In this document: positions 26,438 through 44,995 of the stretch, one piece after another | How the letters are laid out: every line of letters begins with the position of its first letter | How positions within the stretch are numbered: the stretch's first letter is position 1 | NCBI GenBank assembly: GCA_022627495.1 | Contig: JAKEGJ010000021.1 | Span: 14,612-78,611 of the forward strand | Length of the DNA stretch: 64,000 nt | From: Candidatus Micrarchaeota archaeon | GTDB lineage: Archaea; Micrarchaeota; Micrarchaeia; Anstonellales; Bilamarchaeaceae | Direction: 5' to 3' | Position numbers and translations under genes: made by a program | The notes under the pieces: model-generated | What the model saw: the letters and a program-made list of their open reading frames with translations, nothing else | Databases searched by the model: none | What the model was told of the DNA's origin: nothing

Positions 26438-27757
26438 TTAACCAGCGGATTCTGCCGGATTCCGCAGCCTCAAAGCGCATCCTGCGGCAAGCACCGCGGC
26501 GGCGAGGGAGCCCAGGATGACGTATGACGCCGCGCAGCCGCCTGGGGGCGATGCGCCGCCCCCGCCAGGGCCGCTGCCGGGAAGGAAGAGGTCTGCCGTC
26601 AGGTTCTCCGAATCGGAGGCGTCGTTGAACGATGCCGAAACAGGTATCGTATAAAGGAACCCGTCCTGGAAAAGGGAGCGGTTGAATCCGCGGTAAAGGC
26701 GGATTGTCTCATTCGGCCGCAGGAGCATCACCGACGCCTCTTCCCCGCCGTAGGCTTCGGGGACGGAGAACGTGTGCGAGCCCAGGGCATAAGCGGGCCT
26801 GCTGTTGTTGATGGTGACTTCGGCCACGAGCGTCCTCGAGTCGACACTCAGGTTCACTGAAACCCCCTTCGCGTCGTTTGACCCGAAAGCCGTTTCAAGG
26901 CTATCCTGCGCCCGGATGTCCACGTTCTCGTCTTCGGAAATGAGGAGGTCGTATGAAGCGGACTGGTCGTCGCTTTTGCGGATGGCGAGATGCGTGCTGT
27001 CCAGCACGCCGGCCTGGGCGAAGGTGGCGTCCGCCGCCAGCCATCCATGGCCCGGGAGGTAAATCTCGGCCCAAGCGTGGGGCTGCCAGGAGCCCGTATG
27101 GACATAGCCGCTGACATAGCGCGTCTGGAAGCCGAGGCTGCGCGCAAGAGATATCAGCAGGTGGGTGTATTCGACGCAGACGCCGCGCTTTTCCCGGTAC
27201 ACTTCCATGGCGGATTTCGATTTCCCCCAATAATTGATGTCGTAGGCGACATACCCGTGCACCCAGTTCACCAGGTCGCGGATTGTGAGGAGCGCCGAGT
27301 CCGGATGCGAGAGCTCCCGGGCCTGGTGCGAGATGCCCGCATCGGCTTCCGTAAGGCCCGTCCCCTGAAGCGGATTTCCGGGGACGGCCGGGTCGGAGGG
27401 TATCCGGGGGTCGTAATTGATGTCGACAATCGCATTCGCCTCCAGGGTGATTGTGCCGTTGCCAGAGTAATGAAGCACTATGGTGCCGTTTTCGTCCACC
27501 GAGCGCTCCATCCCGGGCGTGGTGGTGACTGAGACAACGCGCTGGCTGCTGTCGTTGACCGCGAGCGCCCCCGTGAAATCGAACGGCGCGCCGCTTGTAA
27601 TCTCCCACGTCCGGTGCAGCGTTACGCGGGAGTAGCCGAAACCGGATGCGGATGCGGATGCGGCGGAAAGCAGGAGAAGCAGGAAGAATGCGTTCCGCAG
27701 GTTCGTTTCCAACAGATCAGCCCCGGATAGAATGCATGCGCTCCAGTTTTTTCCCAA
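26438..27757 (-). CDS. Secreted, C-terminally anchored transglutaminase-like protein
   Basis: The core is RGVCVEYTHLLISLARSLG...HAWAEIYLPGHGWLAADAT (Cys-His-Asp). It has a signal-like AFFLLLLLSAASASASG and a C-terminal TM helix. The real start may be TTG at 27712, just after the purD stop, rather than ATG at 27757, which overlaps purD by 41 nt. Confidence 0.75.
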   Translation of the reverse strand: MGKNWSACILSGADLLETNLRNAFFLLLLLSAASASASGFGYSRVTLHRTWEITSGAPFDFTGALAVNDSSQRVVSVTTTPGMERSVDENGTIVLHYSGNGTITLEANAIVDINYDPRIPSDPAVPGNPLQGTGLTEADAGISHQARELSHPDSALLTIRDLVNWVHGYVAYDINYWGKSKSAMEVYREKRGVCVEYTHLLISLARSLGFQTRYVSGYVHTGSWQPHAWAEIYLPGHGWLAADATFAQAGVLDSTHLAIRKSDDQSASYDLLISEDENVDIRAQDSLETAFGSNDAKGVSVNLSVDSRTLVAEVTINNSRPAYALGSHTFSVPEAYGGEEASVMLLRPNETIRLYRGFNRSLFQDGFLYTIPVSASFNDASDSENLTADLFLPGSGPGGGGASPPGGCAASYVILGSLAAAVLAAGCALRLRNPAESAG

Positions 27758-29012
27758 TCAGTGCGCTGGTGCCGATGTCACTGCGGTGCCATACGGGCCC
27801 CTTGATGAAGGAGCATCCCTTTTCCGCGATGCGCTCCGCCGCGTCAAGGCTGGCCGCCCTCCCAAGCACGCCGAAGGCGCGGGAGCCTGTCGTGAGTATC
27901 TTCCCGCCCTGCTCGTAGACGGAGGCGTAATACACCTTTGCACCAGAGCCTTCCACTCCGGCCGCGTCAATGGACACCGCGGCATCCTTTAGGGGCTTGC
28001 CTGGGTAGCCCTCCGGGACCATGTACTTGACGACGGTGCAATCATCCGAGAATGCCGGCCTGGAGAGCTGGCCTTCCGCAATCGACAGGAAGACGTCCGT
28101 AAGAGAATCCTGGAGCAGCGAGATGACGTTCATCGCCTCAGGGTCGCCGAAACGGGCGTTGAATTCTATGATTTTCACGCCATTTGCCGTGATTATGAAC
28201 TGGCCGTACAGGACGCCCCGGAAGGGGTTCCCGTCCTTTTTCATCGCATGGACGACGCTCTGGAGGATTTTCTGGGCCTCTTCCCGGTCCGCCTCTTCCA
28301 TGAACGGGAGGCGCTTCCCGGAAGAGTACGACCCCATGCCCCCGGTGTTGGGCCCCAAATCGCCCTCATATGCCCTCTTGTGGTCCTGGACCGGCGGCAT
28401 CACCGCTATCCGCGAGCCGTCCGAGAAGCACTGGAACGTGAACTCCTCGCCCACAAGCTTCTCCTCGATTAGGACGCTGCCGTCCTTTTCAATCAGGGAC
28501 TGTGCATAAGCGACCTTCTCGTCTATCTCGTGGAAATGGTCCCCGCTTACTTTGACCCCCTTGCCGCCTGTGAGGCCGAGGGGCTTGACAGCGACAGCGC
28601 CGAAGTCCCTGATGACGCGCCGCGCATCCTCCGCGGCATTCACCACTTCGTGCAGGGGCGAGCCGCTTATCTTATGGCGCTCAAGCAGGCTGCGCATGAA
28701 CGATTTGTCCCATTCGATGCGCGCGGCCGCCTTCGTCGGCGAAGCCACGAGCATGCCGCTTCTGGCCAGGACATCGCTTACGCCTGCTGCGAGGCTGGCG
28801 TCCGGGCTCGCGAATCCCAAATCGAACTCGCGGCCCGCAATCGCCTTCCCGACCGCTTCGGCATCCTCCGTGTCGCAAATCCAATAATCCTTAGAGAGCT
28901 GCGCGATGGCCGGATTCTTCTTTGACATGACCGATGAGAGCTCGCAGTCCTGCGCCAGCTTCTCGGCAATCGCATGCTCGCGCGCGCCGTTTCCTACGAT
29001 AAGCACTTTCAT
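27717..29012 (-). CDS. purD: Phosphoribosylamine-glycine ligase
   Basis: MKVLIVGNGAREHAIAEKL, ATP-grasp core and GPNTGGMGSY. ATG at 29012 (the track starts at 29039). Confidence 0.9.
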   Translation of the reverse strand: MKVLIVGNGAREHAIAEKLAQDCELSSVMSKKNPAIAQLSKDYWICDTEDAEAVGKAIAGREFDLGFASPDASLAAGVSDVLARSGMLVASPTKAAARIEWDKSFMRSLLERHKISGSPLHEVVNAAEDARRVIRDFGAVAVKPLGLTGGKGVKVSGDHFHEIDEKVAYAQSLIEKDGSVLIEEKLVGEEFTFQCFSDGSRIAVMPPVQDHKRAYEGDLGPNTGGMGSYSSGKRLPFMEEADREEAQKILQSVVHAMKKDGNPFRGVLYGQFIITANGVKIIEFNARFGDPEAMNVISLLQDSLTDVFLSIAEGQLSRPAFSDDCTVVKYMVPEGYPGKPLKDAAVSIDAAGVEGSGAKVYYASVYEQGGKILTTGSRAFGVLGRAASLDAAERIAEKGCSFIKGPVWHRSDIGTSALIGKKLERMHSIRG

Positions 29013-29045
29013 AAGGATGACCCGCCACCAGACCGCCAAGAGCGA

Positions 29046-29336
29046 TTAAATCCGGTAGACGCCTTTCTTGTTGCCTCCGAAGAACTCGTCGACCGTGTCC
29101 TTGAACGAGCGCTTCAGGGGCTGCTTGACTATGAAGGAGCGCACCGTCGGATACTGGCGGATGAGCTCGAACGTGAAGATGTACTGGGTAATCGGGGCAT
29201 CGGCTTCGCGCCCCGCGTCTTCGGTTTCCTGCGCGTAGCCCGCGGCGCCCTTGTTGCGCCTTCCTTTGGCTTGCATCCCCCTAACGGCAGCGGTGCCTGC
29301 GGCGGGGTTTGCCTTCCCCTTCCTCTTCCGGATCAT
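29046..29336 (-). CDS. Hypothetical small basic protein (last gene of the VirB4-like cluster)
   Basis: 96 aa. K/R-rich N-terminus. Its ATG overlaps the upstream stop (ATGA at 29333-29336). Confidence 0.5.
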   Translation of the reverse strand: MIRKRKGKANPAAGTAAVRGMQAKGRRNKGAAGYAQETEDAGREADAPITQYIFTFELIRQYPTVRSFIVKQPLKRSFKDTVDEFFGGNKKGVYRI

Positions 29337-30037
29337 TCGAAGCGCCTCCGGATGTAGCCTTCGCGAATCAGCATGTTGAGGCCGTCCTCGGCCCTAGTCA
29401 CGGCGACGGAATTCGCCTTGGAGAATTCGCGGATGTCAATCGTGCCCCCGTGGAGCTTGATCCAGCCATAAAGCGTCTCCTTCAAAAGGTCATCCCCCAT
29501 GCCGCTTAGCGCGGTCAGCTTTTTCGAGACCTCGTCCCTTTTCCTTTCGCATTCGAGGAGGAGCCGCGTGTTGGCCTCGCCCGAGCGGACAAGGTCGTCG
29601 TATTTCGCATTCATGTCCGCGTAGCGCGCCTGCAGCTCGGATAGCTGCGTCGAGAACTCCAATGCATCACGGTCGATTATCTTGGACGTCTCGGAAAGGA
29701 GCGCGTTTATGTGCGTGAAGATGCCGGTGGGGCGCACGTCGTAATAGTCCTCCGCGACCTGCAGGATGTTCAGGAACGTGGGCATCAGGTCCAGAAGGCG
29801 GGCGATGCGGCTCCTTTTCGCCGAGAAGCTGTAGAGGAAGTCAATCGAGCCGTCCTTGAACTCGACACGGTACTCCAAATAAGGCTTGCCCTGGAGGTCC
29901 GTGCCTTTTATTTTCTCCACCGAAAGGACGTTCCTGGCATACGTTATCCTCGTGAAACCGAGCCCGCTAAGCAGGGTCGCAAGGCCTTTGAGGGGTTTTT
30001 TCTGCTTGCCCAAAACCGTGATTTTCTCTTCTGCCAT
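29333..30037 (-). CDS. Hypothetical coiled-coil protein with C-terminal winged-helix-like domain
   Basis: 234 aa. GGAGGTGG SD lies upstream of the ATG at 30037. The central segment is heptad-rich. The C-terminal IREFSKANSVAVTRAEDGLNMLIREGYIRR looks wHTH-like. Confidence 0.6.
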   Translation of the reverse strand: MAEEKITVLGKQKKPLKGLATLLSGLGFTRITYARNVLSVEKIKGTDLQGKPYLEYRVEFKDGSIDFLYSFSAKRSRIARLLDLMPTFLNILQVAEDYYDVRPTGIFTHINALLSETSKIIDRDALEFSTQLSELQARYADMNAKYDDLVRSGEANTRLLLECERKRDEVSKKLTALSGMGDDLLKETLYGWIKLHGGTIDIREFSKANSVAVTRAEDGLNMLIREGYIRRRFE

Positions 30038-30054
30038 CTGTACGCCACCTCCGC

Positions 30055-31653
30055 TTAGACTCCTTTGATGGACGGCGGGTTCATCCCGTCTTCCAGGACC
30101 AGATTCACCACTCCTTTCGTGGCCTTGCGCATGCGGACAAGCGAGAACACCTTGATGAGGTTCTTCTCGTCTATGCCCAGCTGGCGCAGGAATGAGATTA
30201 TGGACGGCTTGGAGTAGCCGAACTTCTCCAATACGGCTACCAGCTGCTCCCCGTCTAGGAGCCCGTCGCCGCGCTCGAACTCGCTCTTTATCAGGTTCAG
30301 CTGGGACTCGTTCAGCCCTATCTCGTAAAGCATCCGCACGAACTGCTCCCTCTCGATTTCGACAATCATCTCTCCACCCCGTATCTTGTAAATGAGCAGG
30401 GGCTCCTCCCCGTCAATCTTGTCCATGAGGAATGTCATGACGCGGGACTGCCTCTCTGCGAATATCATGTTGACCGCGGCGTCGCCCACGCCGAACTTGG
30501 ATATCTCGCCGTCTATGAAATCAGAGTAGCCGATGGAATTGCGGACATAGTCGCGGAACTCCTTGAGTATGAGGCGCAGGACGAACACGGTCCCGATGTT
30601 GCTGAAAATCGTCTTATGCATGTCGGACGGGTTCTGCGTCGCGATTACCAGGGAAAAATTGTACTTCCGGCCTTCGCGGACAATCGTTATGACGTCAGAG
30701 CGCTCGTCCTGGGCGATTTTCCACGCCTCATCCAAGACCACGAAGAGGCGCACATGCCGGTTGTCCTTCTGCATGCCCTCGGCGCGCATCAGCTCCTTGA
30801 TGTACTGCAGTATCGTGAGGCCGGCAAGTGACCGCATCTCCTCGCTCGGAAGGTCGTGGAGGTCGATGCAGACGAGGCCGCCGGATGTGATGTCCTTGAT
30901 GTTGAGCGTTGAAGAGCCGGCGAAGAAATCCGAGCCTTCGGCCGTGAAGCGCTTGAGAAGCCTCGCGGCCTTCTTCTTGTTGCTGCGCTCAAGGATGTGG
31001 ACGACGTGCGCCAGCGTCGGCTTCTCGCATTTCCCGCCTTCGCACAGTTCGCCAAGCGCCTCCCTGACGTCATCCCTATTCAGCTTAAACTTGTGCGTCT
31101 TCTTCTGCTCGTTGCGCATGGCCTTGACCTGCTCTTTCAGGGTGGGCTTCGAGCCGTTGGCCTTGTAATAGACGAATTCGAGCGCCTCCTCTATGTCGTC
31201 GCGCTCGTTCGGGTAGCTTTTGAGGTCCAGGAGTATGTCGAGGGCCGAGATTATCTGCTTTATCCTGCTCCGTTTCGGCAGGCCGACAAGGTCCAGGATG
31301 TTCAGGCGCTCGGTCGCAAGGTTGATTACGCGGCCGCCGGCCTGCTTCACCCACTCGTTGTATTCGCCCACCCAGTCCAAAATTACGGCGTTGGTGTTCC
31401 ATATCATGGAGGCGCGGGTGAGGAACGTTTTTACGGTGTAGGATTTGCCCGAGCCGGTTATGCCGATTATGGCGAGGTGCGGGTTGATGAGCTTGCTTGG
31501 GTTCCAGAAGACGGGGGTCCGGAGGAAGCGCGTCTTGCCGATGTATACGCCTTGCGTCGGAAGCGAGAGCAAAAGCTCTTTGCGAGGCTCCGGAGGGTGC
31601 ACAAGAATCATCTTGCGCGCAATCTCCTTTGAGAGCATGTAGGACGGTTTCAT
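30055..31653 (-). CDS. VirB4/TrbE/HerA-type (DUF87-like) P-loop ATPase
   Basis: Walker A IIGITGSGKSYT, ILDWVGEY, Walker B LFVVLDEAWKI, and REGRKYNFSLVIATQNPSD. It has its own TATA-like tttatata ~40 nt upstream. Confidence 0.8.
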   Translation of the reverse strand: MKPSYMLSKEIARKMILVHPPEPRKELLLSLPTQGVYIGKTRFLRTPVFWNPSKLINPHLAIIGITGSGKSYTVKTFLTRASMIWNTNAVILDWVGEYNEWVKQAGGRVINLATERLNILDLVGLPKRSRIKQIISALDILLDLKSYPNERDDIEEALEFVYYKANGSKPTLKEQVKAMRNEQKKTHKFKLNRDDVREALGELCEGGKCEKPTLAHVVHILERSNKKKAARLLKRFTAEGSDFFAGSSTLNIKDITSGGLVCIDLHDLPSEEMRSLAGLTILQYIKELMRAEGMQKDNRHVRLFVVLDEAWKIAQDERSDVITIVREGRKYNFSLVIATQNPSDMHKTIFSNIGTVFVLRLILKEFRDYVRNSIGYSDFIDGEISKFGVGDAAVNMIFAERQSRVMTFLMDKIDGEEPLLIYKIRGGEMIVEIEREQFVRMLYEIGLNESQLNLIKSEFERGDGLLDGEQLVAVLEKFGYSKPSIISFLRQLGIDEKNLIKVFSLVRMRKATKGVVNLVLEDGMNPPSIKGV

Positions 31654-31711
31654 CTCAGCCTTACCTCAGACGTTAGAACTATCTCCGGGGCGGTATATAA
31701 ACATTACGGCG

Positions 31712-31835
31712 ATGGAAAGGCGGGCAAGATGGCGGGGCCTCGGAGGTCCCGCGACGCGGCTTCAGAACAACGCGTCCTTTATCTCTTCCTGCGTGGTCGG
31801 GAAGAAGAAGCCCCATTCAAAGCGCTTCAGGGTGG
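31712..31835 (-). pseudogene. Duplicated 3' end (last ~24 codons, stop and ~55 nt trailer) of the 32387..33175 gene
   Basis: 31762-31830 aligns without gaps to 32387-32455, including an identical 30-mer atctcttcctgcgtggtcgggaagaagaag. It translates as ...LKRFEWGFFFPTTQEEIKDALF* versus the intact ...LRCFEWDFFFPTTQEEIKDALF*. Weaker similarity continues past the stop. Confidence 0.8.
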
Positions 31836-31929
31836 CAGGTTCAGTTTTAGGGGCATTTACGCAGCCCCGCATTCCCAGGCTGGGCCAGATTATTCCTCGA
31901 CTCTAAAGCGGTGGGCCTCACATCCATCC

Positions 31930-32250
31930 CTAGTCCTTGAACCGTGCCAGTTCGTCCCTTATGCCATGCGATTGTCCCTTTGGAGCGTAAACGAAGTAGA
32001 CGAGCGATTCGCCATTGATTTGCCCCAGGATGCATGCGAGCTTGCAGCCATGCCTGCGCTCCAGCCGCTCCAGGGCATCGGACAGCGAGAGCCCGAAGGG
32101 ATTTTCCCGGGCGCTGAGTTCTATAATGCCCTTCAAGCTGCCCAGTTCCTCCGCCTTTCCGATTTTCCCGCTGCGGGTGCAGGTCTTCATTACCCGCCGT
32201 TCCCGGTCAACGAAAACGTTTATGATTGTATCATTGAATGACCGCTGCAT
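31930..32250 (-). CDS. Hypothetical 106-aa protein carried on the inserted segment
   Basis: Protein-like composition. AT-rich upstream region with TATA-like ctataaatg/tttttattaa. It lies between the two direct-repeat copies. No recognisable family. Confidence 0.55.
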   Translation of the reverse strand: MQRSFNDTIINVFVDRERRVMKTCTRSGKIGKAEELGSLKGIIELSARENPFGLSLSDALERLERRHGCKLACILGQINGESLVYFVYAPKGQSHGIRDELARFKD

Positions 32251-32386
32251 CTATAACCACATAAATACATTTATAGCGAAATTAATAAAAAGGGCTGCTT
32301 TGCCCCCCCCCCGGCACCAGGATTTGGAGTCATGGGAAAGGAGGCGGAAGCCCATGGGGCTGGATGGATGGCTGGAGCCCTCCGGC

Positions 32387-33175
32387 TCAGAACAGGGCGT
32401 CCTTAATCTCTTCCTGCGTGGTCGGGAAGAAGAAGTCCCACTCGAAGCAGCGGAGCATTTCCAAATCCGACAGGTCCCGGACATCGCAGCCTAGCGAGCT
32501 TGAGAGTATTGTTTTCAGCTCTTTCGCCTGCCGGTTCACGCGGCTTAGCGCCTCGTCCCTGGTGAGGCCGAAGGCGGTCGTCGTGGCGAAGGCAATGATC
32601 TCCACAGGCCTCTCGCCCTGCGTAATGCGGTCGAGGAGGCGGTTCCAGTACGCAAGCTCCCTGTCCATGCGCATGCTCTCGTCCGCGGCCAGCTTCGTCT
32701 CCTTGGCCTTCTTGGCTTCAACGGTGCCGCGCTTCGTCTTGATTTCCTCTATGTGCTTGGACAAATCAAGGGTGCTTATCATGAGGGAGATCTTCACTAT
32801 GTATTTCAGCGAGCTGACCGCCTTCTCGAAGGAGTCGAACATCGTCTTCTTCTCCTCGGAATTCTTGTCCATGGAACTCTCGTAGAAGCGGATTTCCAGG
32901 AACTTGCTCGCGTAGTACCCGCTCTCGTTCTTCTTTATGATGTAGTCGCGCGTCGGTGGGACCTCGTAGCCGTCATGCATCTCGATGATGTTTGCGGCCT
33001 TGGTGAAGAACGGTATGATTAGGTAGCCGTATTTCCAGAGCATGAGGGTGATTGAGAAGAACAAGGCCGCGACAATCGGCATTATCGGGTTTCCTGAAAG
33101 GAGCGAAATCACGATTGCGACGAGCCCGCCAAGGAGGGAGATGGCCGTCACGGCGCGGTTGATGAACATATACAT
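32387..33175 (-). CDS. Membrane protein (2 N-terminal TM helices plus cytoplasmic domain); possible split VirB4 N-terminal domain
   Basis: VTAISLLGGLVAIVISLL and IMPIVAALFFSITLMLW, then a soluble domain (YYASKFLEIRFYESSMD...KISLMISTLDLSKHIEEI...) resembling the N-domain layout of VirB4/TrbE proteins. This is an inference. ATG at 33175. Confidence 0.6.
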   Translation of the reverse strand: MYMFINRAVTAISLLGGLVAIVISLLSGNPIMPIVAALFFSITLMLWKYGYLIIPFFTKAANIIEMHDGYEVPPTRDYIIKKNESGYYASKFLEIRFYESSMDKNSEEKKTMFDSFEKAVSSLKYIVKISLMISTLDLSKHIEEIKTKRGTVEAKKAKETKLAADESMRMDRELAYWNRLLDRITQGERPVEIIAFATTTAFGLTRDEALSRVNRQAKELKTILSSSLGCDVRDLSDLEMLRCFEWDFFFPTTQEEIKDALF

Positions 33176-33206
33176 CACATCGAACCGGCATCATATAAAA
33201 ATCTTA

Positions 33207-34307
33207 TCATATGCTCGCAAGCGTCTTGAGGCCAATCTCGCTACCGAGGATGTTCGCGAGCTCCCGGACGAACACGAAAGTCACCGCAAGGGAGAATATG
33301 GGCGCTATCACGGAATAGACCGCGGCTTTTGCGAGCGAACTGCCGTCCGACTGGAGTATCATCGTCAGGCCGCCGCTGAAATCGGTTGTCATGTTCGCAG
33401 TGACGTTGCTGGTCAGGTTCTGGGAAAGGAGCCAGTCGTCGCATATGGTCGTCGTATTCGACACGTTCGTCGCGTATGTGACGTTGGTGCCGTTCTCGAA
33501 GACGACCCATGTCGATATGTTGAAGTCCGCCGGGTCGCACCTGCCGCTTAGGAGGTCGAGCTTCCCGGCGATTGCATAGTTGCTGTTGAGGTCGATAACC
33601 GGGACGGTGGCATAGAAGCTGTTGTTGGTGAAGTTCTCGACCAGGGCTGTCGAGTTCATGATGTCCGGCGCGGGGTCAGGGAAGACGAGGATGAATGTGG
33701 GGTAGAAGACGTAGAGGCCGATTGCGAGGGCTATCATGAAGCCGCCGACTTTGCGCGTAGCGAAGAACGTCCGCAGGACGAGGCCTACGGGAAACAGCAG
33801 TGCGAGCGCGTTCTGCCCGATGAACGCTGCGATCTGGGCGTTCAATTCGACCAGCATCATGATCATGCTGGTACTGAGGAGCTGCTGGGAGAGCGCATCG
33901 GAGACCGGGGAGAGGTTCGCAAACGGCGAAACCGAGAACGCGCCGAAATCCAGCGCCAAATCCTGGTAGTAGCCCACGATGTTTAGGAGCCGCATCATGC
34001 CCTGCATGAGGAAGAAGAGGGAGTCGTTCAGATTGCCCAGGCTGCAGGACAGCTGGACGATGACATTGCCTTTGGAGCAGGTCTCGCTCACCACAGATGA
34101 GCTTATGACTCCGACCAGCTCGACCACCGCCGCGAAAGAGCCGATTATTGCCGCGTTGATGATGGACTGCATCAGCTCTTCAAGGCCGAACATTTCGATT
34201 CGCTTGAAGCCGAACGCGCGGCCCAGGCCGACAAGTATGCCTGCGAGCACTATCGACGCGGTCACAACTATGACGGCGACTTCTATGCCGACGAAAGACT
34301 CAGCCAT
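33207..34307 (-). CDS. Polytopic membrane protein with a heavily sequon-rich extracellular loop (VirB6/CedA-like role proposed)
   Basis: 366 aa, >=6 hydrophobic helices. A ~95-aa loop carries 11 N-X-S/T sequons (NST, NFT, NNS, NIS, NGT, NVT, NVS, NTT, NLT, NVT, NMT). First gene of the cluster. Confidence 0.65.
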   Translation of the reverse strand: MAESFVGIEVAVIVVTASIVLAGILVGLGRAFGFKRIEMFGLEELMQSIINAAIIGSFAAVVELVGVISSSVVSETCSKGNVIVQLSCSLGNLNDSLFFLMQGMMRLLNIVGYYQDLALDFGAFSVSPFANLSPVSDALSQQLLSTSMIMMLVELNAQIAAFIGQNALALLFPVGLVLRTFFATRKVGGFMIALAIGLYVFYPTFILVFPDPAPDIMNSTALVENFTNNSFYATVPVIDLNSNYAIAGKLDLLSGRCDPADFNISTWVVFENGTNVTYATNVSNTTTICDDWLLSQNLTSNVTANMTTDFSGGLTMILQSDGSSLAKAAVYSVIAPIFSLAVTFVFVRELANILGSEIGLKTLASI

Positions 34308-35033: not shown

Positions 35034-35329
35034 ATGAGCGCACCCTCCGCTTCCAGCGCAGAGAGGATTTTTTTGGCAAGGTCTTGCGCTGCCTTGTCCG
35101 TTGGCTTGCGCTCACCCTTGACCATCATTCTCCCGCTCCCGTATACGCTGATTGAGTAGCCGCCCATCTTGACGAGCAGGACGACGGGGCTTGAGCCCGC
35201 CACTTCGCCAAGCTTGGCAAAGGCGGCCCCGGCCCTGGCCAGGTCTATCCTCCTGCCGTTAAGCCGGATTTCCACGCCGTTTGCCGTGGTGCACGGCGCG
35301 ATTACGAAAAAACCCTCAGAGCGGCTCAT
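35030..35329 (-). CDS. Hypothetical 99-aa protein translationally coupled to the ThiF-like gene
   Basis: The internal ATG at 35329 forms ATGA with the ThiF stop (35326). The upstream track extension lies inside the ThiF gene. YSISVYGSGRMMVKG is reminiscent of a TBP-fold strand-turn motif, which is weak evidence. Confidence 0.55.
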   Translation of the reverse strand: MSRSEGFFVIAPCTTANGVEIRLNGRRIDLARAGAAFAKLGEVAGSSPVVLLVKMGGYSISVYGSGRMMVKGERKPTDKAAQDLAKKILSALEAEGALI

Positions 35330-36033
35330 CCGAGCTTCCCCCTCCAGAACACGTCCTTCCGGAATAGGTCGAAGAAAATCGCATCGGGAGCCTTCGCGTA
35401 CGGCATCCCGAGGAGCGCGCTCACTGCCTGCGACGCCGCGAGCGTGCCGGCGAGCGAGGCAGCGGGGCAGATTACGCTCTGGCACATCTGGTAGCGCGCC
35501 AGCGCGTCTTCGTCTTCGGGCAGGCTGAACGCCTTCTCAAAACGGTATGAGGTGAAAACCGACACTATGCCCCGCGAGCCCTGCGCCGAGCAGAAGACGT
35601 ACGGGATTTTTTGCGCCCGGGCGATGCGCGAGAGGATTAGCTTGGATTTCACGTTGTCCGTCCCGTCAAGCACGATGCCGGCGCCTTTTATCGCAGGGCC
35701 GGAGCCTTCCCCGAATTCCTCGTGAGTGGTTATATCTATCCCCTTATTGATGGCCTTCGCCCGAGCCACGGCCGCATGGACTTTCGGCATGTCGAGGAAG
35801 TCCGCGGTGGCAAGCGGCTGGCGGTTGAAATTGGAGAGCTCGAAGCGGTCGTGGTCGAAAACGATGAGATTCTCCACCCCCATCCGCAGGAGGTTTTCAA
35901 GAATGAAGCCGCCCGTCCCCCCGAGGCCCACTATCGCGAACACAGCCTTCCGGACCTTCGCCTGCTGGGCTTTCGTAAGCGGGTTCCTGACGAACTTTTC
36001 ACCGTACAGGTCCGGGTTGCTGGTGCCTTTCAT
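35326..36033 (-). CDS. ThiF/MoeB/HesA-family E1-like adenylyltransferase
   Basis: AIVGLGGTGGFILENLLRMGVENLIVFDHDRFELSNFNRQ (Rossmann/ATP motif). 235 aa, with no rhodanese or Zn-CxxC module. Confidence 0.8.
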   Translation of the reverse strand: MKGTSNPDLYGEKFVRNPLTKAQQAKVRKAVFAIVGLGGTGGFILENLLRMGVENLIVFDHDRFELSNFNRQPLATADFLDMPKVHAAVARAKAINKGIDITTHEEFGEGSGPAIKGAGIVLDGTDNVKSKLILSRIARAQKIPYVFCSAQGSRGIVSVFTSYRFEKAFSLPEDEDALARYQMCQSVICPAASLAGTLAASQAVSALLGMPYAKAPDAIFFDLFRKDVFWRGKLG

Positions 36034-36488
36034 AGCCTACCGAACCCATGGCTGCGGTCGTCGCCTTTCTCCCGGTCCTTCCCGGTGCCTTTTTCCAGGT
36101 ATATCTTCTCCTTGATTCTCTTGAGCTGGGAGGATTCTACGTCGCCGGTCTGGAGTGCGGTCAGGTTTCGGAGGACCTGGAGCCTGCGCTGGATGTGCGG
36201 GTCGATGGTCTTTTCCTTGAACTGCCCGATGTGGGTGACATGGTAGAAGAAAATCGAAACGCCCGCAAGCAGCAGGGCGACGGTATACATGCGGCCGATG
36301 TCCGTCTTGGGAACGATGTCCCCGTATCCGGCGCTAGTGATGGAAACCGTAACGAAATATACGGATTCTATTGGCGTAAGGCCCTCCACGTAGATGAAGA
36401 AAGGGACTGAGATGATATAGAGTAATAGGACAAGGGCAACCCCATTAAGGAGGCTCTTGGCCACCGGGTCCATGGTTGGCATGCGCAT
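36030..36488 (-). CDS. Two-TM potassium channel (KcsA-like pore)
   Basis: Selectivity filter SITSAGYGDIVP flanked by two TM helices. The start is uncertain (ATG at 36488, 36482 or 36473; the track's TTG is at 36527). The stop overlaps the ThiF start (ATGA). Confidence 0.8.
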   Translation of the reverse strand: MRMPTMDPVAKSLLNGVALVLLLYIISVPFFIYVEGLTPIESVYFVTVSITSAGYGDIVPKTDIGRMYTVALLLAGVSIFFYHVTHIGQFKEKTIDPHIQRRLQVLRNLTALQTGDVESSQLKRIKEKIYLEKGTGKDREKGDDRSHGFGRL

Positions 36489-36591
36489 GAAATATCGGAT
36501 GCGGAAAATATAAACGTAGCGCTGCAATGCCGTGCGGCGATTAGGCGGGAACCGGGATGCGGCCGCCCGCCGCGCTTCAATCCGGGCAAGA

Positions 36592-38421
36592 TCATCTGAG
36601 GAATATGACTTTCTTCTTCGCCTTGCCTTTTTGCCTCTTCTCCCCCCCTTTGGACGACCCGTTGCCCCCCACGACGATGTAGTCGTCTTTTGAAGCCATG
36701 ATCTGGTTCTTCAGTATGTCCATCGGCCTGTGCTCCCTGAGGAACAGCCAAAGCGAGGAGGCGCGTATGGCGCTCCATAGGAAGAATACGGACAGGACGC
36801 CGAAGAGTATCGACGCCCAGTTGAATTCCCTGGGCAGCTTCAGGACATCCACAACCAGGTAGGAGTTGGCAAACAGCATGAAGAGGGTGCCGGCAATCAG
36901 GATGTTCCTGACAATCGACACCTGGCTGGCCTGGGGCGTGGTCCGGGAGAATATCGTGGCCAGCGCGTCGAAGAGGCGCTTTAGCGACAGGAGCAGGCGC
37001 GTAAGCGAAACCAGGAAAAGCGCGGCCATAATGGCAAGAAGCGCGGTGTGCGCAGTCATGCTGAAGCCTAACAAGGCGACCTCGAACTGCAGAAACGGCC
37101 TCGCCGCGTAATAGAAGATCAGCGCGCCTACCAGGTAGAAGAGGTCGGAGAAGCTTTTTTTCAGCTCCGCGACGAATAGGCGGTGGAAATAGCCGCCAGG
37201 CTCGAATGCGCAGAGAACGTTCCTGAAATACCCGGAGGCGTCCCTGAGGCTGTCCAGGAACCACACGGGAAGGCGGTGCTTCAACCATGCGTAGATGCGC
37301 TCGCTGCGGTTAAGGGAGACGGAGCAGACTAGCGAGGTCAAGAGCACCCCGATTGACGCTATGCCGACCAGGTCTGCGGTCACGACGCCCACGCTCTCCT
37401 TGGCGATCAGCAGGGAGAATTCACCCAGGGGGAGCATCGCAAGGCCCGCAAAGACCGAAGAGCGCCCGCTGGAACTGATCAGGAAGAATGTGAATGCGGT
37501 CGCAAGGAACACGGTCGCCATGAAGGCCCCTATCAGTATCATGGTCATGTCGGCGGATACGGCGAGCGCGGCCGGGCTTATCAGCATGCCGACCGAGAGG
37601 AAGAAGAATGACGAGAAGACATGGCTGAACGGCCGTATCGCCTGCTCCACGTCCCGGCCGATTGGCAGGCCGGCTATCATGCTTCCGGCAAGGAACGCGC
37701 CGATTGACGGGGTGAGGCCGACTACCGATGCGAGCACGCTCATGCCGACGCCGAGCGCGAAAGCGAATAGTATGAGGGTGTCCTCCGCCTGGTAGCGGAG
37801 GAAAAGCATAGAGAATTTCTTGAGGATGCGCAGGAGCACCAGGTAGGCGAACACCATGACGGCCAGGGAGATTAAGACGGCCCCGATAAGGTCCTCTGAG
37901 CTGAAGGTGCCGGATTTCATGCTCGAGAAGAAAGTGAGCATGAAGACGGCTATCAGGTCCTCTATGATGAGGATGGTGATTAGGACGGGCGTCTCCTGCC
38001 GGTCGGTGAGGCGCTTCTGCTCGAGTATCTTCATCATGATTGCGGTGCTGCTAAGCGACAGCATCGCGGCGATGAAGAGCGACGTCAGATAGTCGTAGCC
38101 TAGGAGTATCGAGACCTCGTGCATGACCGTGAAGGTGAGGAAGACAAGGATGAAGCTGCTGATGATGGCGCGCAGGCCTGAGGAAAGCAGCTTGGTGATG
38201 CTGAACTCGACGCCAATCATGAACAGGAGGAGGACCGCCCCGAGCTCGGCGAGCATGTCGATTGTGGGCAAATCGACGAGGTTGAGCATGTTAGGGCCCA
38301 TCACCATCCCCGCAAGCAAAAGGCCGGCTACGGGAGGCATCCTGAGCCGGACTGCGGCCATGCCTGCGATTGCGGCGAATAGCAGAATCCACTCGAAGTC
38401 GAGAATCGCGGTGCTTTCCAT
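36592..38421 (-). CDS. Cation:proton antiporter (CPA2/Kef-type) with extra C-terminal membrane domain
   Basis: 609 aa. The N-terminal ~380 aa have the Na+/H+ exchanger pattern (LLLAGMVMGP..., LLLFMIGVEF). It is a paralogue of the 1..1254 gene. The C-terminal ~200 aa add further TM helices. Confidence 0.8.
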   Translation of the reverse strand: MESTAILDFEWILLFAAIAGMAAVRLRMPPVAGLLLAGMVMGPNMLNLVDLPTIDMLAELGAVLLLFMIGVEFSITKLLSSGLRAIISSFILVFLTFTVMHEVSILLGYDYLTSLFIAAMLSLSSTAIMMKILEQKRLTDRQETPVLITILIIEDLIAVFMLTFFSSMKSGTFSSEDLIGAVLISLAVMVFAYLVLLRILKKFSMLFLRYQAEDTLILFAFALGVGMSVLASVVGLTPSIGAFLAGSMIAGLPIGRDVEQAIRPFSHVFSSFFFLSVGMLISPAALAVSADMTMILIGAFMATVFLATAFTFFLISSSGRSSVFAGLAMLPLGEFSLLIAKESVGVVTADLVGIASIGVLLTSLVCSVSLNRSERIYAWLKHRLPVWFLDSLRDASGYFRNVLCAFEPGGYFHRLFVAELKKSFSDLFYLVGALIFYYAARPFLQFEVALLGFSMTAHTALLAIMAALFLVSLTRLLLSLKRLFDALATIFSRTTPQASQVSIVRNILIAGTLFMLFANSYLVVDVLKLPREFNWASILFGVLSVFFLWSAIRASSLWLFLREHRPMDILKNQIMASKDDYIVVGGNGSSKGGEKRQKGKAKKKVIFLR

Positions 38422-41139: not shown

Positions 41140-43425
41140 ATGGTGTTCATGCGACGGAGCATAGTCCTATTGCTTGCAATATTCCTGTTGGGTTTTGGGT
41201 GCCTGGGCGAAAGCCCGTACCAGGGGGGGAACGCGGAGGCTGTCGCCAGCGCCCAGCCTACGGACCTTGACGGGGACGGGAGCGCGGATTACATCGTCTA
41301 TGGCTTCTCGCCGGCAACCTACAAGGGAGCGGGGATGATTGTCCAGAGGCAGGTCACCGTCACTGCCGAGACCGCCTCCGCATACACTTCCATCACCCCC
41401 AATCTGACCGATGTGGACCTGCTGATAGCCGACCAGAGCCTGGATGAGTTCTCCAAATCCAGGATACAGGCCGACACGGCATGCAGCCAGGCCATAGGCC
41501 TCAGCAACGTCGTTTGCTCGGACGTCACGACATGCGTGAAGCTCTGCACGAGCGCTTCGCAGAAATGCAGGAACATCGCGGCGGGGAACGAGGAGATCCT
41601 GGCCGGCTCGATGATATCGTATGTCAAGGCGAACAACGAGATACGCTCTCTCCTGCTGGATTCGCGCAGGATCGTCATAACGCTCAGGGAAGGAACCCCG
41701 GAGGAAAGGGACGAATTCCTCGGCAAGACAAGGCAGATAATCAACCGCATCGCCGAGATTAACGCGAACCCGCTTTACTCCAGCGGCGATTTCCTGCTGT
41801 GCTCATATTCCGACTTCGGCATCCCGTACATGCTCGATGCCGCGCACAAGGTAGGGCAGTATGAAACCCAAAATTCCGGCTACCGCTACCACGTGCTCAT
41901 CTCGGTAAAGCCGGCCGCCTCAGGAAACGCCCAGGACATAGGGGTGGAGATTTCCGGGCTCGGGATAACGGACAAGATTCCCGCCAACCTGGTCCTGGAC
42001 ACCGAAAGCATCTCTTCCATGCAGGCCATTTCCGCGTCCGAATCCGGAGGGTATTCGGTGGTGAACTGGACATCCGCCAAGTCGAACGAGGCCGGATACG
42101 CGCTTTATTACGAGTTCCAGTCGGAGGAACCCCCCGAAAGCGTAATCGGGGGCATGCGTACGCCGGAAATACACGTGAAGACCATCAACCTGGTGCCTCT
42201 TGCGCCGACCAACATGATACTGGTGGCCTTGAACGGCGCCCTCGGGAACTACTATCTGGCATTCGGGGCGGCGACAGGCATCACGCTGGCCGCATTGCTG
42301 TTCGTCTACAACATCGTAATACTCCTTTTCACAATGCTGAGCGAGAGGGTCGCGGGAGCGAGCCTCACGACCGGATTCCGGAAGGCCTTCGGAAGGACCG
42401 ATGTGCGCTGGAAGGCGGATATCGTCGTAGCGGCGGTGATGCTGGCGGCTGGGTATTACCTGTCCACAACGGTTGCCATGCGGCCTGCAGCCATGCCGCC
42501 CCTCCTCGAATCAGTCGATTTCCTCATGAAGAGCGACATGGGTCTGATAGCCATAGGCGTGACGCTGGTCGGCGTCCTGATGACTTATTTCGCAATCGAG
42601 AACTTCGTCAAGATAACGATACTCGAGCGGGCGTACGGGATGGTGATACGCCAGGAAAAGGACATGTTCCTCGCCAAGGCCGGGGCCCTTAAAGACAGGA
42701 TAAAGGAGCTCGAGTCCCTGGTGGAGGAGTACAGCAAGGAGGACTTCGACGTAAGCAAGGAATACGACGTCCTCACGACCGTGAAAAGCGAGAAGATAGA
42801 CCTCCTTGCCAAGGACATGACCGCCAGGAGCAAGGCGCTCATAGACGACTACCTCACCCGCGTCGACAACGCGGTTTCCAGCCTGAAAGGCAGGAAGAAG
42901 CTGGCCGACGAGAACTGGCCCAGGTGGAAGGAGGCCATAGAAAAGATGCTTAACGAGCAGAACGAGGTCTACATCTCCTCCCTCGTCACCGTTCCTGCGT
43001 CGCTGCGCGGCTGGGCGCTCGGCAAGTTCGCCAAGGAGGCGGGCGTGGAAGGCCTCAGTTTCGAGCGGGACGTGATAAAGAAAAGGAAGGTGTCACCCGA
43101 CCAGCTCGTCTTGGACATGCTCGGAAAAGGCCTGCTCAGGGGGGCTATCGTGATGAAGCAGGACAAGGTCGTCCTGGCTGAGTTCGCGGAGGGCGGGGGC
43201 ACGGTCATGACCGCCCTGGGCCTGAAGCTGATGTCTTATATGCGCACATTGGCCCGGAACCTCGGCCAGCACCAGCCCCAGAGCTTCGCGGCTATCGGGG
43301 ATAAGACGGTCATTGTCGTCATGCGCAGCCGCATGCTGGATTCCATCCTGTTCATCAGCAAGGACAAGTTCAAGGATGCGGTCGAGCAGTGGAAGGCCAA
43401 GATGAAGATTTTCGAGTCCGGATGA
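41140..43425 (+). CDS. Large membrane protein: lipobox-like signal, extracellular domain, ~4 TM helices, cytoplasmic coiled coil and Roadblock/LC7-like C-terminus
   Basis: LLLAIFLLGFGCLG; DLDGDGSADYIV (Ca-binding/FG-GAP-like); TM block at ~aa 360-490. The C-terminal GLLRGAIVMKQDKVVLAEFAEGGGTVMTALGLKLMSYMRTLARNLG...KTVIVVMRSRMLDSILFISKDK fits the beta-beta-alpha-beta-beta-beta Roadblock pattern. This is an inference. Confidence 0.65.
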   Translation: MVFMRRSIVLLLAIFLLGFGCLGESPYQGGNAEAVASAQPTDLDGDGSADYIVYGFSPATYKGAGMIVQRQVTVTAETASAYTSITPNLTDVDLLIADQSLDEFSKSRIQADTACSQAIGLSNVVCSDVTTCVKLCTSASQKCRNIAAGNEEILAGSMISYVKANNEIRSLLLDSRRIVITLREGTPEERDEFLGKTRQIINRIAEINANPLYSSGDFLLCSYSDFGIPYMLDAAHKVGQYETQNSGYRYHVLISVKPAASGNAQDIGVEISGLGITDKIPANLVLDTESISSMQAISASESGGYSVVNWTSAKSNEAGYALYYEFQSEEPPESVIGGMRTPEIHVKTINLVPLAPTNMILVALNGALGNYYLAFGAATGITLAALLFVYNIVILLFTMLSERVAGASLTTGFRKAFGRTDVRWKADIVVAAVMLAAGYYLSTTVAMRPAAMPPLLESVDFLMKSDMGLIAIGVTLVGVLMTYFAIENFVKITILERAYGMVIRQEKDMFLAKAGALKDRIKELESLVEEYSKEDFDVSKEYDVLTTVKSEKIDLLAKDMTARSKALIDDYLTRVDNAVSSLKGRKKLADENWPRWKEAIEKMLNEQNEVYISSLVTVPASLRGWALGKFAKEAGVEGLSFERDVIKKRKVSPDQLVLDMLGKGLLRGAIVMKQDKVVLAEFAEGGGTVMTALGLKLMSYMRTLARNLGQHQPQSFAAIGDKTVIVVMRSRMLDSILFISKDKFKDAVEQWKAKMKIFESG

Positions 43426-43430
43426 CTGCA

Positions 43431-44756: not shown

Positions 44757-44848
44757 CTACTAATTTGATAATCATTAGTATTCATTAGTAGGTGTTTGTT
44801 TATAAATATATCTACTAATTCGTTAATCATTAGTATTCATTAGTAGGT
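44757..44848. promoter_or_regulatory. Fic upstream region: two 37-bp direct repeats with internal dyads flanking a TATA-like box
   Basis: ctactaatt[t/c]g[a/t]taatcattagtattcattagtaggt occurs at 44757-44793 and 44812-44848. Each contains CTACTAAT...ATTAGTAG. tttataaatata (44799-44810) lies between them. Copy 1 abuts the Fic ATG. Confidence 0.55.
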
Positions 44849-44995
44849 ATCAGAGGCATCCCGATAGGAGATAAAAAAGTGAATAAAAACCAGAAAAACC
44901 ATACGAATTTAAAGCCTCCCGGACAATATAGTTTTAGGCAAAAATACTGACTTTTCTACGACGTAAACTCGCACCAAGGAACTAGTGGTAATTGT

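Follow-up and report, generated by a model that had tools for sequence, protein, structure and literature searches.

The 64-kb stretch of DNA analysed here (the window) is a segment of a Micrarchaeota (DPANN) chromosome, and its gene products of 532, 260 and 366 amino acids (aa) are identical to proteins in public 'Candidatus Micrarchaeota archaeon' assemblies. At positions 29046-34307 it carries five co-directional open reading frames (ORFs), all on the minus strand, which are the subject of this study and are referred to as the module. They encode a polytopic membrane protein, a membrane-anchored protein, a P-loop ATPase, a coiled-coil protein and a small basic protein. A preliminary description of this DNA had reported the same five ORFs at these coordinates; a sixth ORF of 106 aa, located in an insertion between the second and the third gene, had been overlooked. 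The features are given below in reading order.

33207-34307, minus strand: 366-aa polytopic membrane glycoprotein, candidate channel (ORF; positional and topological analogue of VirB6/CedA)
32387-33178, minus strand: 263-aa protein, putative detached CedB-type N-terminal part (the public annotation begins 3 codons later, giving 260 aa)
32387-32448, minus strand: direct-repeat copy A, the functional 3' end of the 263-aa gene (sequence comparison)
31824-32386, minus strand: 563-bp lineage-specific insertion between the split ATPase halves, with an AT-rich promoter-like stretch and the 106-aa ORF
31930-32250, minus strand: 106-aa ORF within the insertion
31762-31823, minus strand: direct-repeat copy B, in which the final 19 codons and the stop of the 263-aa gene recur at 90% identity, followed by the native spacer
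31694-31701, minus strand: TATA-box-like element TTTATATA, about 41 nt upstream of the ATPase start codon (putative promoter)
30055-31653, minus strand: 532-aa P-loop ATPase, putative C-terminal motor domain of a CedB-type (VirB4/HerA-superfamily) translocase (Pfam, NCBIfam, hhalign)
29333-30037, minus strand: 234-aa cytoplasmic protein, family-specific accessory subunit, always directly downstream of the ATPase
29046-29336, minus strand: 96-aa basic protein, its start codon overlapping the stop of the 234-aa gene

The 532-aa protein had been described as a P-loop ATPase with the motifs GITGSGKSY, VVLDEAW and RKYNFSLVIATQNP. All three were found and are invariant among 37 homologues, and the Walker A, Walker B and RKYN...ATQNP motifs are invariant in the family alignment. 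In Pfam the top match was DUF87 (72.5 bits, cutoff 23.2), followed by AAA_10 (60.9 bits, cutoff 27.5), both above their cutoffs; CagE_TrbE_VirB (PF03135) was absent from the Pfam matches of the module proteins at E<=1. The NCBIfam models ranked in the order CedB (102.4 bits), the VirB4-like CD1110 of Firmicutes (82), CedD (70), mycoplasma VirB4 (69) and HerA (at most 55 bits against cutoffs of 800-970), all of these matches lying far below the equivalog cutoffs. The curated VirB4 model TIGR00929 was not reached either (48.4 bits, cutoff 643). The best stretch of the CedB match (NF041017) covers model positions 345-570 of 590. Comparison by hhalign of the ATPase family profile with P0503, a CedB protein of 603 aa, gave a probability of 98.6% (E 6.5e-16), in which residues 14-395 were aligned with CedB 251-582. 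Judged by its sequence the ATPase is a homologue of CedB, without equivalog status.

The remaining matches of the ATPase are short or uninformative. FtsK (PF01580, 25.9 bits) was matched at residues 57-80 only, which is the P-loop, and the motor length and gamma domain of FtsK are missing; the TrwB_AAD_bind and TraG-D_C matches are likewise short P-loop or Walker B stretches. Walker A begins at residue 64, so that the approximately 60 residues preceding it leave no room for a HAS barrel. At its other end the protein has a family-specific C-terminal extension of about 130 aa, for which no informative match was found in the PDB. The ATPases of the window's clade also have an insert of about 50 residues (residues ~167-215) with a C-x-x-x-x-C motif (CEGGKCEKP), from which those of more distant Micrarchaeota are free in the family alignment. 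Public names of the ATPase are 'ATP-binding protein', 'DUF87 domain-containing protein' and 'DNA helicase HerA-like ATPase', and one record of a Bilamarchaeum ATPase has the automatic label 'DNA import protein CedB'. The PDB sequence matches are led by defence-type HerA proteins. CedB and CedD were themselves first placed in the HerA clade by their ATPase domains, and it is their N-terminal domains that tie both to VirB4 (PMC11868833). For this reason the ATPase domain alone is not decisive. Because CedB belongs to a HerA-like clade and defence HerA models score almost as high, 'CedB-type' is a more accurate label than the 'VirB4/TrbE-style' of the preliminary description, of which the relation to type IV secretion system (T4SS) ATPases stood (CedB first, CD1110 second).

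What precedes the ATPase in CedB was found in the 263-aa protein. As had been described, it opens with two transmembrane helices, which form a hairpin and are followed by a soluble cytoplasmic alpha/beta domain. A profile search of 1.84 billion representative proteins with this family retrieved 161 clusters, nearly all of stand-alone proteins of ~240-280 aa. The same profile also matched residues 17-230 of the CedB protein P0503 (E 1.4e-5, whole library). P0503 aligns end-to-end with the NCBIfam CedB model (positions 9-587 of 590, 222 bits), and a member of its cluster with identical length sits in a Ced locus in which CedA1 (PF27251), a CedA-like gene of 474 aa and CedB follow one another; Rpo13 and another DUF87 ATPase are encoded close by. 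Because Rpo13 and the Ced genes occur in this locus, the P0503-type CedB was attributed to a crenarchaeon. When 68 diverse members of the 263-aa family were compared with P0503 by hhalign the probability was 96.7% (E 3.4e-10), residues 43-249 being aligned with CedB 42-238; a shallower profile gave 89%. On P0503 the alignments of the 263-aa protein and of the ATPase are collinear and do not overlap, with some 12 residues between them as a linker. Two transmembrane helices stand at the start of the 263-aa protein and of CedB alike. CedB consists of transmembrane helices, a VirB4-like N-terminal domain and a C-terminal HerA/VirB4-like ATPase domain (PMC11868833). All of these elements are present in the module, collinear and distributed over two polypeptides.

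An AlphaFold model of the 263-aa protein (predicted local distance difference test, pLDDT, 69.5) was compared with the PDB by Foldseek. The top matches were TrwK/VirB4 of the R388 T4SS (8rtb_A, 8rtd, 7o42) with probabilities of 0.91-0.99, E values of 3.7e-3 to 4.8e-2 and ~180 aligned columns, the aligned target residues not being reported by the tool. The model has the fold of a VirB4-type N-terminal domain, at moderate strength. Among the 68 family members the most frequent NCBIfam matches, weak ones, were CedB (9/68) and VirB4_plasma (5/68). The window's protein itself had one significant NCBIfam match, to VirB4-like CD1110 positions 223-282 (E 1e-3), and no match to CedB. A search of PDB sequences with the family profile gave only chance matches to coiled coils or designed proteins and was set aside. 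All family members that carry an organism name belong to Micrarchaeota, Micrarchaeia or Micrarchaeaceae, save one partial 'Nitrososphaera sp.' protein, and they include proteins only 16-22% identical to that of the window. Together, the collinear alignments on CedB, the TrwK/VirB4 fold and the NCBIfam matches make it very probable that the 263-aa protein and the 532-aa ATPase form a split motor of the CedB/VirB4 type. The earlier proposal that the 263-aa protein is a detached VirB4 N-domain was thus borne out by a natural fusion (P0503), by hhalign, by Foldseek and, weakly, by NCBIfam.

The distribution of the module was studied by a pattern scan of one genome per species, in which relatives of the ATPase turned up in 375 stretches. 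Of these the best 80, together with 4 others, were examined, 84 loci in all. The best 80 of the 375 are labelled Micrarchaeota or one of its subgroups (Micrarchaeia, Bilamarchaeum, Bilamarchaeaceae, Anstonellales), a few only 'archaeon' or 'Candidatus ainarchaeum', and their ATPases are 56-96% identical to the query. The 234-aa gene lies directly downstream of the ATPase gene in 77/77 loci, the 263-aa gene upstream of it in 64/68, and in 49 of 60 informative loci the 366-aa gene is the immediate upstream neighbour of the 263-aa gene, so that the membrane genes are syntenic with the ATPase, as the preliminary description had asked to be verified. A small ORF with a conserved 42-aa core occupies the space between the 234-aa gene and purD in nearly all 84 loci, and purD follows within 700 nt downstream in 61/72. 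The order 366-aa gene, 263-aa gene, ATPase, 234-aa gene and small basic peptide, next to purD, is common to about 80 Micrarchaeota genomes. Conservation of the ATPase exceeds that of purD in 50 of 52 loci (mean identity 74% vs 64%). In 31 of 74 loci the 263-aa stop and the ATPase start are separated by at most 30 nt or overlap, which suggests that these genes are expressed in a coupled manner.

The module persists in the most divergent Micrarchaeia, in which the 263-aa homologue is only 16-22% identical. In the distant contigs L086 and L087 the genes for homologues of the membrane protein and of the 263-aa protein, for the DUF87 ATPase and for the 234-aa homologue still follow one another in this order; the 366-aa homologue is retained in the most divergent lineages, and the 234-aa homologue there was recognized by hhalign (85%, E 6e-6). 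Because of the synteny counts, the close or overlapping junctions and this persistence, there is a high probability that the five genes specify one apparatus. These two contigs hold longer versions of the module (L086:4552-11589, L087:2064-9938). Downstream of the 234-aa homologue they encode one or two small transmembrane proteins, a hydrophobic peptide of 47-103 aa and another ATPase (727/754 aa), weakly matched by DUF87/AAA, which could be a counterpart of CedD or of a coupling protein. The C-terminal extension is partly missing from the first ATPase in one version (442 aa) and mostly missing in the other (361 aa).

Divergent loci also have a gene that the window is without. In L086 and L087 a gene of 126/149 aa is situated ahead of the membrane gene, and its product has a signal-like, cleavable-looking N-terminus, two hydrophobic helices and a short basic loop. 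A similar 81-aa pilin-like gene overlaps the start of the membrane gene in 13/84 loci, which make up a clade whose ATPase is 56-61% identical to that of the window. In all, 15 divergent loci have such a pilin-like gene (81-149 aa) immediately ahead of the membrane gene. PF18895 (T4SS_pilin) was matched by 12 of 13 aligned members (best E 3.8e-5, sub-threshold with 24.1 against a 26.6-bit cutoff) and PF04956 (TrbC/VirB2) by 6 of 13 (best E 2.6e-6, sub-threshold), whereas no resemblance to CedA1 was detected. From these loci the ancestral module of Micrarchaeota looks like a VirB2-like pilin, a membrane protein in the VirB6 position and a VirB4/CedB motor. The preliminary statement that no conjugation genes are nearby therefore holds for the window, where none was found, and not for the divergent relatives, which carry the VirB2-like pilin gene in the operon. 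A relation of the VirB2-to-VirB6 type between the relatives' pilin (residues 20-81) and the membrane protein (residues 12-78) was considered and is not claimed (hhalign E 0.0086, probability 4.7%).

The 366-aa membrane protein has five hydrophobic, transmembrane segments. Its predicted topology places the N-terminus outside and the C-terminus inside, with extracellular loops at residues ~75-158 and 211-323. VirB6 has a similar topology, with the N-terminus outside, five transmembrane helices, large extracellular loops and the C-terminus inside. CedE and VirB6 are described as proteins with five transmembrane segments (PMC11868833). The 366-aa sequence contains 13 N-x-S/T sequons against 3.5 +/- 1.7 in shuffled sequences. 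Eleven of them fall within the 211-323 loop, in agreement with the earlier count, and this sequon-rich loop is predicted to be extracellular, as the preliminary description had proposed to confirm. The 13 sequons all lie in the two loops, which also carry four conserved cysteines, including Cys257 and Cys289 in 211-323, and the latter loop is the most length-variable part of the family alignment. The sequon excess, the conserved Cys pairs and the hypervariable loop make the protein a candidate for exposure at the cell surface. It has 222 homologues, and every organism name shown among them is Micrarchaeota or Bilamarchaeum. Comparison by hhalign of the family with the 322-aa upstream protein of locus L001 was negative.

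The two downstream proteins had been noted as having no obvious counterpart, and none was found in Ced or in T4SSs. Searches of the 366-aa, 234-aa, 96-aa and 106-aa proteins against Pfam, NCBIfam, PADLOC and PHROG gave nothing significant. In public records the partner proteins of the ATPase are named 'hypothetical', 'uncharacterised' or, rarely, by another generic automatic label. The 234-aa protein begins with an alpha/beta region, continues as a coiled coil and ends in a winged-helix-like domain, which agrees with its earlier description, the winged-helix matches being weak. This end (residues ~185-230) resembles the winged helix of the ESCRT-III protein CdvB (2xvc) at a non-significant E of 0.058, and 15 of 31 homologues matched the ESCRT-II EAP30/Vps36 family, also non-significantly, a curious likeness in a protein that accompanies a T4SS-type ATPase. 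The 96-aa protein is basic, as had been stated (20 K+R vs 9 D+E). Its N-terminal extension is variable and rich in Lys/Arg, whereas the C-terminal core of ~42 aa is conserved, with the consensus Y-x-F-x-F-E-[IL]-x-[KR]-x-Y-P-x-x-R-x-[FY]-I-[IVL]-K-x-P-L-K. Both proteins appear to be integral, lineage-specific subunits without a counterpart in Ced or T4SSs.

The known systems nearest to the module are Ced, Ted, the T4SSs of monoderms and Patescibacteria, and the HerA helicases. With Ced of Sulfolobales and Desulfurococcales (CedA, CedA1, CedA2, CedB, CedD/CedE), which imports DNA between cells in response to DNA damage, it shares a motor homologous to CedB over both the transmembrane/N-terminal part and the ATPase domain. 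Like Ced it is chromosomal rather than plasmid-borne, and its motor is paired with a polytopic membrane protein in the absence of a relaxase or coupling protein. It differs from Ced in that the motor is split over two genes, the ATPase has the extra ~130-aa C-terminal extension and two obligatory subunits are added (the 234-aa coiled-coil/winged-helix protein and the small basic peptide). Furthermore, no similarity of the 366-aa protein to CedA or CedA1 was detected, and it does not show the CedA1-like N-terminal region (PF27251) of the polytopic CedA. A CedA1 pilin was not found in the window, and the relatives' pilin is closer to bacterial VirB2/T4SS_pilin than to CedA1. A second, CedD-like ATPase is missing from the window, and the host belongs to DPANN and not to Thermoproteota. 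Because the curated thresholds for CedB and VirB4 were missed and no CedA/CedA1 is recognizable, the module is filed outside Ced and, as far as sequence comparison goes, is a variant of the Ced/Ted/minimal-T4SS kind. The earlier suggestion of a Ced-like logic (ATPase, polytopic channel candidate and protein with two transmembrane helices) was upheld, by homology for the two motor halves and by position and topology for the membrane protein.

Ted (TedA, TedB, TedC; Thermoproteales) is a chromosomal trio of a VirB4-like ATPase, a VirB6-like membrane protein and a VirB2-like pilin, and this trio defines both Ced and Ted, of which the components have diverged too far from each other for plain sequence searches (PMC9905601). 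The module resembles Ted, according to its published description, in being a chromosomal minimal trio with a divergence beyond plain sequence searches and with a VirB2-type pilin in L086 and L087. In contrast to the module, TedB is a single-chain VirB4, and Ted loci commonly have HerA, ParA-like and Rad50 genes (PMC9905601), none of which is present here. With the T4SSs of monoderms (MPF-FATA) and Patescibacteria the module has in common that the Firmicutes VirB4-like CD1110 matches both motor halves, that the 263-aa protein has the TrwK/VirB4 fold, that the relatives' pilins match T4SS_pilin and that it is kept without relaxase in an ultrasmall, probably host-dependent lineage. Most Patescibacteria T4SS loci are reported to be without a relaxase (PMC12102498), and a chromosomal T4SS is reported to be required for the growth of patescibacterial epibionts on their host (PMC12857230). 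Unlike monoderm T4SSs, the module has no detected equivalents of VirB3, VirB8, VirB1 and VirD4, its VirB4 is split and the curated VirB4 thresholds were missed. HerA helicases belong to the same ATPase superfamily; DUF87, the 'HerA central domain', is the top Pfam match and the PDB and PADLOC matches are led by HerA. Unlike them, the module has no HAS barrel and no NurA, Mre11, Rad50, Sir2 or nuclease partner, and the N-terminal partner of its ATPase is a membrane-anchored domain of the CedB/VirB4 type. No published description of the module was found in the literature on Micrarchaeota or DPANN with CedB, Ced, T4SS, VirB4, VirB2 or VirB6, the coverage of which was incomplete. New, then, are the module itself, its split motor and its two conserved subunits.

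Taken together, these results favour the reading, at a probability of about 0.55, that the locus encodes a chromosomal, vertically inherited minimal translocon derived from a T4SS, of the Ced/Ted kind and specific to Micrarchaeota. Most likely such a translocon would use ATP to move DNA across the cytoplasmic membrane, probably into the cell, by analogy with CedB; for DNA as substrate and inward as direction the odds are put somewhat short of even. The 263-aa protein would supply the two-helix membrane anchor and the VirB4-type N-domain, and the 532-aa protein the RecA-like ATPase domain. The two halves would assemble as a membrane-docked ring beneath the channel of the 366-aa five-helix glycoprotein. 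In basal lineages the VirB2-like pilin encoded immediately upstream may lengthen the apparatus towards the outside. The 234-aa protein and the small basic peptide would be obligatory, lineage-specific cytoplasmic partners that may handle a nucleic acid substrate or regulate the ring. Imported DNA could serve recombination, scavenging from host or neighbouring cells, or both. Three outcomes had been named beforehand in the preliminary description as speaking against its proposal (an ATPase of another clade, a lack of synteny, and no likeness of the 263-aa protein to VirB4 N-domains). Each was tested and none was encountered; as to the clade, CedB was the best NCBIfam match and the hhalign partner of the ATPase, with HerA models near.

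Several observations weigh against the translocon. The ATPase misses the CedB equivalog cutoff widely (102.4 vs 700 bits), and in PADLOC it matches defence-type HerA models with 92.8 bits, which is close to its CedB score, and mad8 with 80.7 bits. The structural likeness of the 263-aa protein to VirB4 is modest (best E 3.7e-3, TM-score ~0.32-0.36, from a model with pLDDT 69.5). The 366-aa protein matched nothing in Pfam or NCBIfam, including VirB6, TrbL, CedA and CedA1, and PF27251 was not found at E<=1. Comparison by hhalign of its family with CedA and CedA1 of locus L085, for which single sequences were used, gave probabilities below 1%. Its AlphaFold2 model (pLDDT 75.8) had no match in the PDB by Foldseek, the best being TTYH channels (E 0.12, TM-score ~0.15). 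It is therefore a candidate translocation channel, VirB6/CedA-like by position, topology and co-inheritance only. Neither a relaxase, nor a VirD4/TraG coupling protein, nor an integrase was found among the module proteins and 18 flanking ORFs, so that genes for DNA processing and coupling are missing, and a hidden Markov model built from the relatives' pilins detected no pilin-like ORF in the 64-kb window, although a pilin gene could lie elsewhere in the genome. Finally, conservation as high as this would be compatible with a housekeeping function too, for instance in chromosome handling.

The most serious rival retains the apparatus and changes its direction or cargo: it would export, inject into a host or conduct in both directions protein, nucleoprotein or other macromolecules, as has been proposed for patescibacterial T4SSs. 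This is unlikely on balance, yet the same T4SS-type parts (split VirB4/CedB motor, VirB2-like pilin in relatives) without relaxase, as in most Patescibacteria T4SS loci, speak for it, and so does the phylum-wide conservation in a host-dependent lineage. The hypervariable, sequon-rich extracellular loop of the membrane subunit and the large secreted or surface-anchored proteins inserted in operons of relatives are also in its favour, and VirB4-like ATPases have been linked to host interaction in Nanohaloarchaeota (PMC10266531). It is opposed by the nearest characterized homologue, CedB, which works in DNA import, and by the module, in which no effector-like or coupling-protein gene is conserved.

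A weaker and improbable rival is that the module is a housekeeping pump for the cell's own chromosome, which would act in segregation or clearance in the manner of FtsK/HerA, anchored to the membrane by the 263-aa protein and linked to division by the 234-aa protein. A conservation above that of purD, a fixed position among housekeeping genes, an ATPase of the FtsK-HerA superfamily and a window without pilin would all suit such a pump, as would the weak likeness of the 234-aa winged helix to CdvB (2xvc) and ESCRT-II EAP30. This likeness is, however, not significant, both motor halves are specifically homologous to CedB/VirB4 and not to FtsK/HerA N-domains, the operon partner is a surface-exposed glycoprotein with a hypervariable loop, and in basal lineages the operon includes a gene for a VirB2-like pilin.

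A HerA-type anti-virus defence system or a decayed integrated conjugative element is highly improbable: the PADLOC scores and HerA-led PDB matches of the ATPase and the foreign insertions that accumulate at a junction within the operon speak for this reading, but the module occurs almost throughout the phylum, in conserved gene order and under strong purifying selection, which sets it apart from defence islands and the remnants of mobile elements. Defence was rejected on conservation and partner content, since none of the other five proteins of the module region matches any PADLOC model and neither a HAS-barrel N-domain nor a nuclease or Sir2 partner is present; a mobile element was rejected since there is no integrase, the sole tRNA gene of the window is ~18 kb away, plasmid and phage matches of the ATPase are weak (22-27% identity over most of the protein, 23-27% for plasmid VirB4 proteins) and IMG/VR gave no match. 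The best-supported view of its inheritance is that the module is core, chromosomal, vertically transmitted, under strong purifying selection and specific to Micrarchaeota.

For the translocon this has several implications. The way in which DPANN archaea obtain or exchange material with their hosts is a long-standing open question. The module is a prime candidate for the movement of DNA or other macromolecules across the membrane of these cells, and a concrete set of five to six genes is now defined across Micrarchaeota. The Ced/Ted family of domesticated conjugation machines would be extended beyond Thermoproteota. The natural split of VirB4/CedB at the boundary of N-domain and ATPase domain is useful for dissecting how the motor docks to the membrane, and co-cultures of Micrarchaeota with Thermoplasmatales exist that allow direct tests of the module. 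More tentatively, the module may correspond in DPANN to the T4SS of Patescibacteria, as a conduit between symbiont and host that is essential and defines the phylum, for the uptake of host DNA, nucleotides or macromolecules or for injection. It is conceivable, at the same low level of confidence, that this conduit is built of a split CedB motor, a glycan-shielded VirB6-like pore, an ancestral VirB2-like pilus and two subunits without known relatives. If true, T4SS-derived machines would have been domesticated independently for host-dependent life in the candidate phyla radiation (CPR) and in DPANN.

The gap of 733 nt between the 263-aa gene and the ATPase gene holds the 106-aa ORF in the 563-bp insertion. 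On either side of the insertion stands one copy of a 62-nt direct repeat (31762-31823 and 32387-32448, 90% identity), so that the final 19 codons and the stop of the 263-aa gene are present twice. Copy B still encodes FEWGFFFPTTQEEIKDALF*, and the sequence downstream of it matches the native spacer of relatives L007 and L008. Among the 74 loci with an examinable junction, the tail repeat (42/45 matching) occurs in this genome only. The arrangement has the signature of a site-specific insertion into the 3' end of a gene; no integrase is present. No relatives of the 106-aa ORF were found in Pfam, NCBIfam, PADLOC or PHROG, nor by tblastn in the 84 related loci, and this orphan has its own AT-rich upstream stretch. 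The TTTATATACCGCCCC block of the window recurs ahead of the ATPase gene of L007 and L008, and L010 has a similar TTTATATATCGCC there. A scan for bacterial-type promoters and terminators, which is not applicable to archaea, performed no better than on shuffled sequences.

The junction of the 263-aa and ATPase genes is a hotspot of insertion in the window's clade: 22/74 loci have unrelated insertions of 0.16-5.1 kb. In basal lineages the two genes overlap at this point. Examples among loci L003-L058 are L016:3175-6954, L017:3334-6936, L006:4544-6931, L018:1959-6634 and L058:2991-7000. Judged from sequences and precomputed Pfam tags only, several cargos look like large secreted or membrane-anchored surface proteins, and others seem enzymatic (a hydrolase, a methyltransferase, a possible radical-SAM protein). 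Those of L016 and L017 are sequon-rich repeat proteins of 1,200-1,259 aa with a signal peptide and a C-terminal transmembrane anchor; that of L006 is a Cys-rich protein of 795 aa.

The module had been placed between purD and housekeeping genes, and the flanks are indeed of this nature: PolB, Pus10, a phosphoribosyltransferase, PcrB, the adjoining purD, a transglutaminase-like protein, a PHP-domain protein, the CCA-adding enzyme and gyrase. The purD gene and a membrane-anchored transglutaminase-like protein (439 aa, Transglut_core 4.6e-23) lie downstream of the module at 26438-29039, and in most Micrarchaeota loci this pair is likewise situated behind the module and points the same way. The array that runs from the gene of the PHP-domain protein to that of the transglutaminase is tightly packed, with short or overlapping junctions. 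Genes at 35326-38421 probably encode a ThiF-family protein, an ion channel and a Na+/H+ antiporter, as deduced from the syntenic locus L003. The region 41140-46000 has a G+C content of 0.49-0.53 vs ~0.58 elsewhere and may be foreign or fast-evolving DNA. It contains a 761-aa ORF without Pfam match and, just upstream of gyrB, a Fic/DOC-family protein at 43431-44756 (minus strand).

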